From a virus (lineage: Duplodnaviria; Heunggongvirae; Uroviricota; Caudoviricetes): a DNA stretch of 5,657 nucleotides. The notes under the pieces are model-generated. The model was not told the DNA's origin and did not search any database. It saw only the letters and a program-made list of their open reading frames with translations. The stretch's first letter is position 1. Every line of letters begins with the position of its first letter. Below are positions 1 to 5,657 of the stretch, in pieces. The stretch is taken from the IMG/VR virus record IMGVR_UViG_2609460218_000011. The stretch is one strand, 5' to 3'. A program made the translations under genes and the position numbers.

Positions 1-131
1 ATGAACTGCAGTTGCCATGTTTTACGGCAGTGAGAGCAGAGATAGCGCTGATGTCCGGCGGTGCTTTTGCCGTTACGCACCACCCCGTCAGTAGCTGAAC
101 AGGAGGGACAGCTGATAGAAACAGAAGCCAC
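1..131 (-). CDS. insA: IS1 InsA, N-terminal 43 codons; 3' part lies outside the window
   Basis: The minus-strand frame starting at GTG (complement of 129-131) translates to [43 protein letters not shown], which matches the InsA N-terminus from memory. The start lies ~55 nt inside the IRL, as expected for IS1. Confidence 0.85.
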
Positions 132-186
132 TGGAGCACCTCAAAAACACCATCATACACTAAATCAGTAAGTTGGCAGCATCACC
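1..186 (-). mobile_element. IS1-family insertion sequence, partial copy cut by the window edge; left inverted repeat (IRL) terminus at position 186
   Basis: Read on the minus strand from 186 down to 1, the sequence is the IS1 left end GGTGATGCTGCCAACTTACTGATTTAGTGTATGATGGTG... as I recall it. The same ~170 nt recur in forward orientation at 5487-5657. The element continues beyond the window start. Confidence 0.9.
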
Positions 187-4459: not shown

Positions 4460-4935
4460 CATATCTGCCACCTGATTAATCGTTCTGCGTGCCATTCTGG
4501 CGCTGTATGCGCACACCGCGCAAACGGCGTGACGTAAAGCGTGAGGTGACGTAAACCGCGCTACCCCCTCCAACCCGCGGGTTTTGTGTCGAAACACTTT
4601 TTCAGTTTTCTGCCGTGCAAAAATGACCGCCAGCCCGCGCAGCGACTGAGGGAAAAGCGAAGATCTGAAATTTCACGCTTTGAAATTTTTTGCAGTTTTC
4701 AGCGAGTTTTTTACGATCTCATAAATGGCAGGAGCAATGAAACTGCATGATATTAAAAGAGTTTTCATGCTTTGCGCGAGACGAAAAACGATCAAAAAGG
4801 ATCGCGACAAAAAATCGTCAAACAACGAAGCCAGACGCGGCGCGGCCTGCGTAAAATTGAGAGTCAAAATTAAACTGAAAAAAGGATCAATAACGCGCCT
4901 CGATCGCACATGACGATCTACGCAGCAACAGAGCG

Positions 4936-4958
4936 AAAAAAACCGGCGCGAACGCCGG
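4936..4958 (-). terminator. Strong Rho-independent terminator acting on the minus strand
   Basis: On the minus strand: CCGGCG (comp. 4953-4958), UUCG tetraloop, CGCCGG (comp. 4943-4948), then seven U (comp. 4936-4942). The plus strand has no T-tract after the hairpin, so it is directional. Confidence 0.55.
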
Positions 4959-5000
4959 CGGAAGCATGTATCAAATGCGTGACTGAATAATGTATAAGGT
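4936..5000 (-). ncRNA. Candidate small RNA of about 60 nt, transcribed divergently from the hok-type promoter
   Basis: Minus-strand sigma70-like promoter: -35 TTGAGG (complement of 5030-5035), 18-bp spacer, -10 TAAAAT (complement of 5006-5011). This predicts a start near 4998-5000 and termination at the 4936-4958 terminator. No ORF of note lies inside. Confidence 0.25.
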
Positions 5001-5039
5001 CGGGAATTTTACATCAGAAGACCGACAAACCTCAACGGA

Positions 5040-5069
5040 TTGAAACAAGGGAAAAAACCAGGCTAGAAT
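5040..5069 (+). promoter_or_regulatory. Sigma70-like promoter of the hok-type toxin transcript
   Basis: -35 TTGAAA (5040-5045), 18-bp spacer, -10 TAGAAT (5064-5069). The predicted start near 5076 coincides with the first base of the 5' fold-back element. Confidence 0.45.
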
Positions 5070-5075
5070 TCGCGC

Positions 5076-5427
5076 GGGTGCCTTTCGGCTGATGGCTGGA
5101 GGGAATACCTGAAGGCCGGATGTGGAAAGGCCCCGGAAAACATTTTTGTTTAACCGAGGCCCTAACCATCTACCCTAGACAAGTGATAGGTTAGCGCCTC
5201 CCCGAAAAAGGAGCAAGCGCTATGTCGCAAAAATCGCTTACAGCCATCACGTTCTGCGTGACGGCAATCCTCATCATCTGGATGTTGCACGGTTCACTGT
5301 GTGAGATACGGATGAGTTTTTGGGGAGCGGAGTTTGCGGCGTTCTTACAGTGTAAACAGTAAGGAAACCGCGGCGGGGGAGCAATCCCCCGTCAATCGGT
5401 TGCTAAGGTAAGGTCGTAAAGGCACCC
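5076..5427 (+). other. hok/gef-type toxin mRNA unit with 5' (tac-like) and 3' (fbi-like) complementary elements
   Basis: GGGTGCCTTT at 5076-5085 is the exact reverse complement of AAAGGCACCC at 5418-5427 (10/10). A GC-rich hairpin (GGGGGA-GCAA-TCCCCC, 5375-5390) sits in the 3' UTR. This matches the long-range 5'/3' pairing known for hok mRNAs. Confidence 0.55.
5222..5362 (+). CDS. Hok/Gef-family type I toxin (46 aa), small membrane peptide
   Basis: Translation: MSQKSLTAITFCVTAILIIWMLHGSLCEIRMSFWGAEFAAFLQCKQ. It has an N-terminal hydrophobic helix, the conserved SLCEIR motif and a C-terminal Cys, as in Hok-family peptides. SD AAGGAG (5208-5213) lies 8 nt upstream of ATG 5222; stop TAA 5360-5362. 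Not in the ORF track because it is under 60 codons. The specific paralogue is not recognised, so no symbol is given. Confidence 0.75.
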   Translation: MSQKSLTAITFCVTAILIIWMLHGSLCEIRMSFWGAEFAAFLQCKQ

Positions 5428-5486
5428 TATCTTCTAACATATGAGTGGAAAATCCTACGGGGAAAAATGTAAACCTCGTCCTTGCC

Positions 5487-5657
5487 GGTGATGCTGCCAA
5501 CTTACTGATTTAGTGTATGATGGTGTTTTTGAGGTGCTCCAGTGGCTTCTGTTTCTATCAGCTGTCCCTCCTGTTCAGCTACTGACGGGGTGGTGCGTAA
5601 CGGCAAAAGCACCGCCGGACATCAGCGCTATCTCTGCTCTCACTGCCGTAAAACACT
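5487..5657 (+). mobile_element. IS1-family insertion sequence, partial copy cut by the window edge; IRL terminus at 5487
   Basis: GGTGATGCTGCCAACTTACTGATTTAGTG... in forward orientation, the reverse complement of positions 16-186. The last two bases (5656-5657, CT) differ from the left copy (TG). Confidence 0.9.
5542..5657 (+). CDS. insA: IS1 InsA, N-terminal portion; continues past the window end
   Basis: GTG 5542 opens a frame translating [38 protein letters not shown]..., matching the InsA N-terminus. Confidence 0.85.

Follow-up and report, generated by a model that had tools for sequence, protein, structure and literature searches.

The toxin gene and its product

We analysed a stretch of 5,657 nucleotides from a Caudoviricetes record (IMG/VR IMGVR_UViG_2609460218_000011), hereafter referred to as the window, which carries near its right-hand end a short toxin gene of the hok type, together with a set of putative regulatory elements (Table 1). 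Positions 5040-5432 very probably represent one copy of a widespread, mobile type I toxin-antitoxin cassette of the hok/sok type, corresponding to cluster 72 in a published catalogue of hok loci (bioRxiv 10.1101/2025.08.07.668861).

Judging from its sequence, the 46-residue peptide encoded at 5222-5362 belongs to the Hok/Gef family, as had been proposed in an earlier, sequence-only reading of the same DNA. The Pfam profile PF01848 (HOK_GEF) matched it with 29.9 bits (E = 4.1e-7), above the gathering score of 22 bits that served as the cut-off, with residues 7-44 aligned on profile positions 5-42 of 42. The peptide was characterized by a hydrophobic N-terminal run (LTAITFCVTAILIIWML), the motif SLCEIR at residues 25-30, and a cysteine (Cys44) near the C-terminus. 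All seven residues of the Hok logo were present (M1, C12, T14, L26, C27, E28, and E37); at a constant offset of 4, these correspond to M1, C16, T18, L30, C31, E32, and E41, described in the text of the catalogue as more than 80% conserved among Hok proteins (bioRxiv 10.1101/2025.08.07.668861). PHROG 251, labelled 'MokW-like host killing', also matched the peptide (E = 1.3e-22); at the sequence level, this label indicates similarity only, and not identity with hokW.

For comparative purposes, 17 related loci retrieved by BLAST were aligned. The hok open reading frame (ORF) was intact in all of them, and the ratio of nonsynonymous to synonymous substitution rates (dN/dS) ranged from 0.04 to 0.65; these values, all below 1, indicate that the ORF is under purifying selection.

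Predicted promoter, mRNA 5' end and pairing of the transcript ends

A promoter scan recovered the sigma70-like site TTGAAA-18-TAGAAT at 5040-5069 with 10/12 matches, as one of 2 sites in the region, where 0.4 would be expected. A TAnnnT -10 box was found at a constant distance from the motif GGGTGCC in 17/17 loci; the loci without upstream homology exhibited a different -35 hexamer, TTGCCG or TTGCCC, in the same position. The Rfam model RF01794 (sok / hok leader) matched the plus strand at 5076-5235 over its full length (model positions 1-157, E = 3e-8). We take this model to lie on the hok-mRNA strand because the published hokW mRNA probe YO-597 complements its consensus. Both the promoter and a 5' end near 5076 had been put forward in the sequence-only reading; the promoter was recovered as read, and the Rfam match begins exactly at the predicted 5' end.

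The predicted transcript starts with GGGTGCCTTT (5076-5085), the exact reverse complement of which, AAAGGCACCC, is found at 5418-5427. This inverted match can be read directly from the sequence, and its earlier chance estimate, of the order of 1e-4, is close to the value that we obtained: a 10-mer at the fixed 5' end met its reverse complement 250-450 nt downstream in 4/20000 dinucleotide shuffles (2e-4), a figure that holds only because the 5' end was fixed beforehand. When the 10-mer was left unspecified, exact inverted pairs with a spacing of 200-500 nt occurred 1.8 times per shuffled window, and the real window contained six overlapping pairs of this kind, at four distinct sites.

The comparative evidence is stronger than this chance estimate. 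On the 5' side, GGGTGCCTTT(C)GGCT was invariant in the 17 loci. On the 3' side, only a 7-nt core, GGCACCC (5421-5427), was invariant (16/17 loci), with similarity stopping directly after it; the AAA that extends the match to 10 nt is particular to the lineage of the window. A second short helix, formed by CGGCU with GGUCG, GGCCG, AGCCG, or GGCUG, was maintained by one-sided changes. Mean pairwise identity among the 17 loci reached 0.99 for the 5' element (tac) and 0.97 for the core of its 3' partner (fbi), with 0.59-0.66 in the neighbouring segments (5396-5420) and 0.40 in the downstream flank. The Hok coding sequence had a mean identity of 0.82, the linker and variable segments 0.59-0.68, and the sequence outside the cassette 0.40. 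By this measure, the regulatory boxes (tac, ucb-like, dcb-like, and fbi; 0.94-0.99) are better conserved than the coding sequence.

Folding of the RNA from 5076 to 5430 gave a predicted structure of -158 kcal/mol (z = -6.9), in which nucleotides 1-15 paired with the 3' end in both the minimum free energy (MFE) and the centroid folds. The full-length folds of 17/17 loci paired both ends with a probability of at least 0.92, and the predicted energy of the tac:fbi duplex (5076-5090 with 5412-5427) ranged from -23 to -29 kcal/mol across the alignment. The same computation yielded end-pairing in two characterised controls, hokW of Sakai prophage 5 (Sp5) and an R1-type plasmid locus. The tac/fbi type of pairing suggested by the sequence-only reading is therefore predicted for the window and for every relative in the alignment. 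Moreover, the paired sequences are GGCGCUU/AAGCGCC in R1, GGGUGC-UUGAGG/CCUCAA-C-GCACCC in hokW, and GGGUGCCUUU-CGGCU/GGUCG-U-AAAGGCACCC in the window; tac and fbi thus differ on both sides between clusters, yet stay complementary.

Table 1. Features of the hok-type cassette and of the adjoining IS1 end in the window.
Feature	Coordinates	Strand	Remarks
Putative hok promoter	5040..5069	+	-35 TTGAAA (5040-5045), 18-nt spacer, -10 TAGAAT (5064-5069)
Predicted hok mRNA 5' end and tac element	5076..5090	+	GGGUGCCUUUCGGCU; RF01794 model position 1 at 5076
Local 5' hairpin	5093..5118	+	GGCUGGAGGGAAUACCUGAAGGCC; predicted in full-length and trimmed folds
Upstream ORF, 24 codons	5120..5194	+	hok frame; stop TAG 5192-5194; probably not a functional mok
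ucb-like box	5122..5134	+	GUGGAAAGGCCCC; alternative tac partner; identity 0.94
GAGG resembling the mok Shine-Dalgarno sequence	5156..5159	+	followed by ATC (5168-5170) at the position of the missing mok start
Variable stretch	5163..5187	+	apical loop of Shine-Dalgarno/dcb hairpin; complement of predicted Sok 5' tail
dcb-like box	5188..5200	+	AGGUUAGCGCCUC; identity 0.97; other strand holds the putative sok -10
hok Shine-Dalgarno sequence	5208..5213	+	AAGGAG; ATG 8 nt on; conserved; overlaps putative sok -35 of the other strand
hok toxin gene	5222..5362	+	46 residues, MSQKSLTAITFCVTAILIIWMLHGSLCEIRMSFWGAEFAAFLQCKQ
3' stem-loop	5366..5401	+	core 5372-5393 (9 bp); outer helix AACCG/CGGUU; probable 3' trimming stop
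fbi element	5412..5427	+	GGUCGUAAAGGCACCC; conserved core GGCACCC (5421-5427)
Predicted sok unit	5120..5216	-	-35 TTGCTC (5216-5211), 17-nt spacer, -10 TAACCT (5193-5188)
Predicted sok RNA	~5181 to ~5122	-	~58 nt; GC-rich hairpin 5163-5127; tail UUUCC
IS1 end	5487..5657	+	GGTGATGCTGCC...; outside the cassette; 59 nt past fbi

Internal leader boxes, predicted trimmed form and 3' hairpin

Between tac and the toxin gene, RNAalifold paired 5122-5134 with 5076-5089 (12 bp, U5079 bulged), both sides being invariant; in addition, the dcb-like box AGGUUAGCGCCUC was paired with GAGGCCCUAAC by RNAalifold and in the individual folds. These two stems correspond to the tac/ucb and Shine-Dalgarno (SD)/dcb stems of the processed form of R1 hok mRNA (PMC9841398). 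When the window RNA was trimmed from its 3' side to the hairpin at 5372-5393, its 5' end was predicted to pair with the ucb-like box (P = 0.97). The tac/ucb and SD/dcb stems were present in the trimmed MFE folds of 10/17 loci; the hokW and R1-type controls formed a local 5' hairpin instead.

In the local 5' hairpin of the cassette (5093-5118), one-sided changes from G-C to G-U preserve the pairs. One locus (L011, NZ_CP069528.1) exhibited a 20-nt tandem duplication (GGTCGGAGGGAATACCCGAA) inside this hairpin (alignment A1, columns 72-91), which lengthens the leader and leaves the tac, ucb, and fbi boxes undisturbed.

Variation within the cassette is greatest at 5163-5187, where mean pairwise identity falls to 0.68 between flanks of 0.87 and 0.97. 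In the trimmed fold, this stretch forms a loop of 14 nt, and it may play a role in recognition by Sok. Related DNA is present in up to 9 copies per genome, and the variability of this stretch may reflect divergence among copies, through which each Sok would recognise only the hok mRNA of its own locus.

The 3' hairpin contained two covarying pairs, according to RNAalifold: G-C is replaced by A-U in 5 sequences, and A-U by C-G in 4. In R1, the analogous 3' hairpin protects the truncated hok mRNA (PMC9841398).

The start region of hok (5222-5230, AUGUCGCAA) was predicted to pair with UUGCGGCGU at 5334-5343 in 17/17 loci. This helix is near-invariant and, according to the folds, would keep the AUG inaccessible before as well as after trimming.

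A predicted antisense RNA

A candidate sok unit was identified on the minus strand, opposite the leader (Table 1). In 17/17 loci, the antisense RNA was predicted to fold more stably than the sense strand. In the predicted sok hairpin, 96.4% of the alignment cells were paired when read as minus-strand RNA versus 77.8% as plus-strand RNA, a bias explained by 42 G-U cells that turn into A-C mismatches on the other strand. The putative sok -10 hexamer is positionally homologous to the GGTTAGCC site that was mutated for the silencing of sokW, and the sok promoter mutation of R1 falls in dcb (PMC9841398). These observations suggest that a Sok-like RNA may be transcribed from this locus and may act on the hok mRNA.

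Distribution and annotation

DNA identical to 4950-5486 was found in three complete E. coli chromosomes. RefSeq annotates the coding sequence at 5222-5362 as 'Hok/Gef family protein' (WP_000078916.1), and the exact peptide was found on at least 1000 contigs of Escherichia, Shigella, and Salmonella. The earlier description of the locus as unannotated is consequently valid for an ORF track with a 60-codon floor, a threshold that conceals type I toxins, and does not extend to RefSeq.

Related DNA (~74-100% identity) was present in 1750/5426 complete E. coli genomes, with a maximum of 9 copies per genome, as well as in 198 phage records, from P88-like Peduoviridae and Shiga toxin (Stx)-converting phages. 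The phage copies adjoin ogr in the sampled P88-like prophages and lie downstream of lom in the Stx-converting phages. A further 35 plasmid records, mainly from E. coli, contained related DNA; the two that were examined (L012 and L013) were of the IncI type. Homology extends from ~5048-5052 to 5427-5432, that is, from inside the promoter to just beyond the proposed fbi element. Since these limits match the promoter and fbi, the mobile unit coincides with the predicted transcription unit.

The 2026 preprint of Escalera-Maurer et al. describes 32,532 hok loci in 61 clusters and reports an enrichment of hok in prophages; according to its text, the analysis dealt with coding sequences only, with Mok, Sok, and mRNA ends outside its scope (bioRxiv 10.1101/2025.08.07.668861). 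The exact peptide of the window is listed in its Table S2 as 72_1621, which represents the highly abundant cluster 72, and was cloned as LRP137. The same text states that 42 of the 45 Hok homologues tested were toxic, the non-toxic ones being 19_179, 60_1482, and 69_1540 (bioRxiv 10.1101/2025.08.07.668861), which implies that 72_1621 was toxic on induction. The locus is an ordinary hok-type toxin gene, already annotated and catalogued, and the impact on annotation is small, as RefSeq already includes the gene, and the peptide has been both catalogued and assayed for toxicity in published work. The new elements are the regulatory map of cluster 72, the predicted Sok-like antisense RNA, the internal box that would compete with the 3' end for the 5' end, and the absence of a canonical mok.

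Proposed mechanism and alternative explanations

The following scheme takes its refolding step from R1 by analogy and the toxicity of the exact peptide from the text of the preprint; the transcript ends, the 3' processing, and the transcription and action of Sok are those that we infer for this locus. What the present analysis itself shows is that the peptide belongs to the family, that the ends are predicted to pair, that every box is conserved, that the 3' hairpin covaries, and that the sok hairpin has a strand bias. A sigma70-type promoter would start an mRNA of ~350 nt at ~5076, coding for the 46-residue Hok membrane toxin. In the full-length RNA, tac would pair with fbi, and the ucb-like box would be free for the GAGG region, resulting in a closed, inert form. 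Exonucleolytic trimming from the 3' end to the hairpin at 5372-5393 would strip fbi, which could allow the 5' end to move to the ucb-like box and the arm containing GAGG to pair with the dcb-like box. In this trimmed form, the variable loop (5171-5184) would be presented to the Sok-like antisense RNA of ~58 nt, the binding of which would trigger decay of the hok mRNA.

Several observations weigh against this scheme, or against the assignments on which it draws. Since neither tac nor fbi varies inside the cluster, covariation between them is visible across clusters only, and RNAalifold, applied to the 17-locus alignment, picked the competing tac/ucb stem, not tac/fbi. No intrinsic terminator was predicted by the scan downstream of fbi. 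The refolding step is weakly tested, because the trimmed controls folded into their local 5' hairpin and not into the published tac/ucb pairing. The RF01794 match scored 46.3 bits, under the gathering score of 59. The putative sok promoter has 6/12 consensus matches and was left uncalled by the promoter scan; because its hexamers share positions with the hok SD and the dcb box, their conservation does not count as independent evidence. With regard to the peptide, the best-scoring named Hok subfamily, NCBIfam HokA (NF007290), gave 34 bits versus an equivalog cut-off of 89, and the Hok subfamily model NF007279 gave 21.6 bits versus a cut-off of 73, both far under the threshold.

The leader frame adds to these points. 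At 8 nt after GAGG, where hokW and the R1-type locus have the ATG of mok, the window has ATC, and ATG, GTG, or TTG was found at this canonical start position in none of the 17 loci. The mok frame of the window is closed by stops at 5110-5112 and 5176-5178, and an ATG at 5092, in the same frame, leads to a stop after 6 codons. Neither the window nor 12/17 relatives have a frame that starts with ATG, GTG, or TTG and continues into hok; the other 5/17 have a long frame into hok, starting from two different upstream ATGs. In R1, by comparison, translation of mok at least as far as the hok SD has been reported to be mandatory (PMC9841398). The sequence-only reading, which covered neither mok nor sok, had described the fold-back architecture as intact: this is appropriate for the predicted fold-back pairing, but the full R1-type architecture is absent, as there is no mok frame.

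A tentative explanation, to which we give slightly less than an even chance, is that cluster 72 is a naturally mok-less lineage, abundant, mobile, and selected, which has kept the whole tac/fbi/ucb/dcb RNA switch, and the 'mok SD' as a structural element, while losing the mok start codon, and in which Hok translation would be controlled directly instead of through leader-peptide coupling. The missing start codons could also be expected if the locus were a silent relic, with its RNA architecture and toxin ORF kept but Hok never translated natively, so that the locus would be idle or would operate through RNA only. In R1, Hok is no longer translated when mok carries stop codons upstream of hok (PMC9841398), and the chromosomal genes hokA, hokB, and hokC, for which no post-segregational killing was found, have been suggested to be inactive, according to the text of the preprint (bioRxiv 10.1101/2025.08.07.668861). 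The cassette analysed here lies within a decayed prophage fragment between IS1 copies, and a conserved long-range helix, predicted in both RNA forms, would sequester the hok AUG. However, if Hok were never translated, it would be difficult to account for an ORF that has stayed intact in every locus of the alignment, with the dN/dS values given above. Intact, inducible-type phages and conjugative plasmids have also kept the cassette, as have about one in three E. coli genomes, and the preprint text indicates that the peptide is toxic when expressed. We consider a silent relic to be unlikely, though worth serious consideration, and tentatively favour translation of Hok without mok over native loci that remain silent.

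Another possibility is that the 24-codon ORF at 5120-5194 replaces mok, with ribosomes ending 27 nt before the hok ATG opening the structure around the ribosome-binding site. Its ATG at 5120 is invariant in the 17 loci, GAAGG is located four nt upstream of it, and the ORF ends 13 nt before the hok SD. Depending on the locus, however, the ORF starting at this ATG comprises 1, 8, 19, 24, 25, 60, 61, or 78 codons (three loci have the 1-codon form and another three the 8-codon form); therefore, no coupling function can be conserved, and ATG 5120 was rejected as a mok start on the basis of this variation. Moreover, predicted helices enclose the ATG and its SD in the full-length as well as the trimmed RNA, pairing of the T and G of this ATG with the tac extension can explain why it is invariant, and translation in R1 must reach the hok SD (PMC9841398). 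A role of this ORF as a mok substitute thus appears very improbable. As for a chance association of a short hydrophobic ORF with a fortuitous inverted 10-mer, devoid of biological meaning, a 46-codon ORF alone is unremarkable, and exact 10-mer inverted pairs are common as long as no end is fixed; but the Pfam score above the cut-off, the Rfam E-value, the z-score of the fold, the conservation of thousands of copies within sharp homology limits, and a peptide that has been both annotated and tested make such a coincidence scarcely credible.

The R1 model demands mok, yet a very common cassette without canonical mok has preserved all the RNA elements, along with a toxin ORF under selection. If cluster 72 is indeed a mok-less lineage with direct control of Hok translation, the hok family would have a second regulatory solution, and mok would be dispensable in nature. 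If active, the cassette would represent a natural system for the fold-back switch without leader-peptide coupling.

Setting of the cassette

Both extremities of the window (1-186 and 5487-5657) correspond to the same IS1 terminus (GGTGATGCTGCC...), in opposite orientations and facing inward. The right-hand copy is 100% identical to the IS1 copy in locus L001, carries an IS1A/IS1B family transposase annotation in E. coli genomes, and leaves the cassette whole. The fbi-side IS1 junction was found in none of the complete E. coli genomes of the collection. In all likelihood, the window is a contig assembled from short reads that ended at repeats. The IS1-bracketed segment of 5.3 kb, which combines phage-tail genes and hok, could be a composite-transposon-like unit, or merely such a broken contig. 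A search of the available library for papers on insertion sequence (IS) elements beside the K-12 hok loci returned nothing.

The interior of 5.3 kb is a prophage remnant. Its genes encode a tail fibre, of which the C-terminal part is present, a baseplate protein, and two proteins without known function. Over 5300 bp, it differed from E. coli strain 33-6 by 7 substitutions and one additional A at position 1609; in strain 33-6, IS1 is located elsewhere, within the tail-fibre gene, with none downstream of hok. The additional A divides a phage gene of 240 residues and unknown function (1431-2154; PHROG 1677/31292) into overlapping ORFs at 1431-1931 and 1621-2154, which probably reflects either a frameshift pseudogene or a homopolymer sequencing error. 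The presence of the cassette within an IS1-bracketed phage remnant would also be in keeping with a role of such toxins in the persistence of mobile DNA that is otherwise of no use.

A promoter-like site (TTGAGG, 18 nt, TAAAAT) was also observed on the minus strand, from 5035 to 5006, and was followed past 5006 by a clean intrinsic terminator on the same strand (stem 4959-4942 plus T7). Together (4932-5035), they would bound a transcript of ~65 nt, divergent from hok, within a 640-nt stretch without annotated gene; no Rfam match was found for this site. Elsewhere in the window, a match to RsmY at 2044-2185 (E = 0.24) was taken as chance.

Comparison with known hok systems

The closest published relative of the toxin is the entry 72_1621, with which the peptide is identical; the preprint does not describe the regulatory elements, or the lack of a mok start, that we report for the window. 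The nearest named subfamily is HokA, and one source labels the peptide 'protein HokA'. Nevertheless, the catalogue places HokA in cluster 93, not 72 (bioRxiv 10.1101/2025.08.07.668861); for this reason, and given the subfamily score of 34 bits versus 89, the peptide should not be called HokA.

Among the prophage-borne systems, the cassette resembles hokW-sokW of Sakai prophage 5 (PMC8621323) by its prophage location, the 5' GGGUGC, the fbi core GCACCC, and the hok -10 TAGAAT; the putative sok -10 also falls on the motif homologous to GGTTAGC. HokW differs by its length (51 residues, MKQQKAM...), its assignment to the HokD-type cluster 35, and its intact mokW, the ATG of which is at position 615 of the hokW locus (L018). 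Stx phages carry hokW close to one of their ends, in addition to a cluster-72 copy. The Stx2 phage VT2-Sakai/Sp5 (AP000363.1) contains two hok loci: hokW-sokW at 57.5 kb (L018) and a cluster-72 copy at 44.5 kb (L004). The latter, which is located downstream of lom and has no mok start, remained in place in the hokW-sokW deletion studies. We rejected this Stx-phage copy (81% identity) as the published hokW-sokW, as the primers of the paper place hokW elsewhere (PMC8621323). Since hokW is a different locus and encodes a different peptide, no experimental result of that study transfers directly to the window.

The likeness to hok/sok (parB) of R1, the paradigm of type I toxin-antitoxin systems, includes a small Hok membrane toxin, predicted end-pairing by tac and fbi, and a 3' stem-loop followed after ~30 nt by fbi; it may extend to a competing ucb-like box, an SD/dcb hairpin, and an antisense RNA with its -10 in dcb. 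The toxin comprises 46 residues in the window versus 52 in R1, and the carrier is a plasmid in R1 but a prophage remnant here. The mok of R1, 70 codons long and with its ATG 8 nt after GAGG, is needed for hok translation, whereas the window has ATC and two stops. In tac/fbi, 5/7 core pairs differ between the window and R1, through compensating changes.

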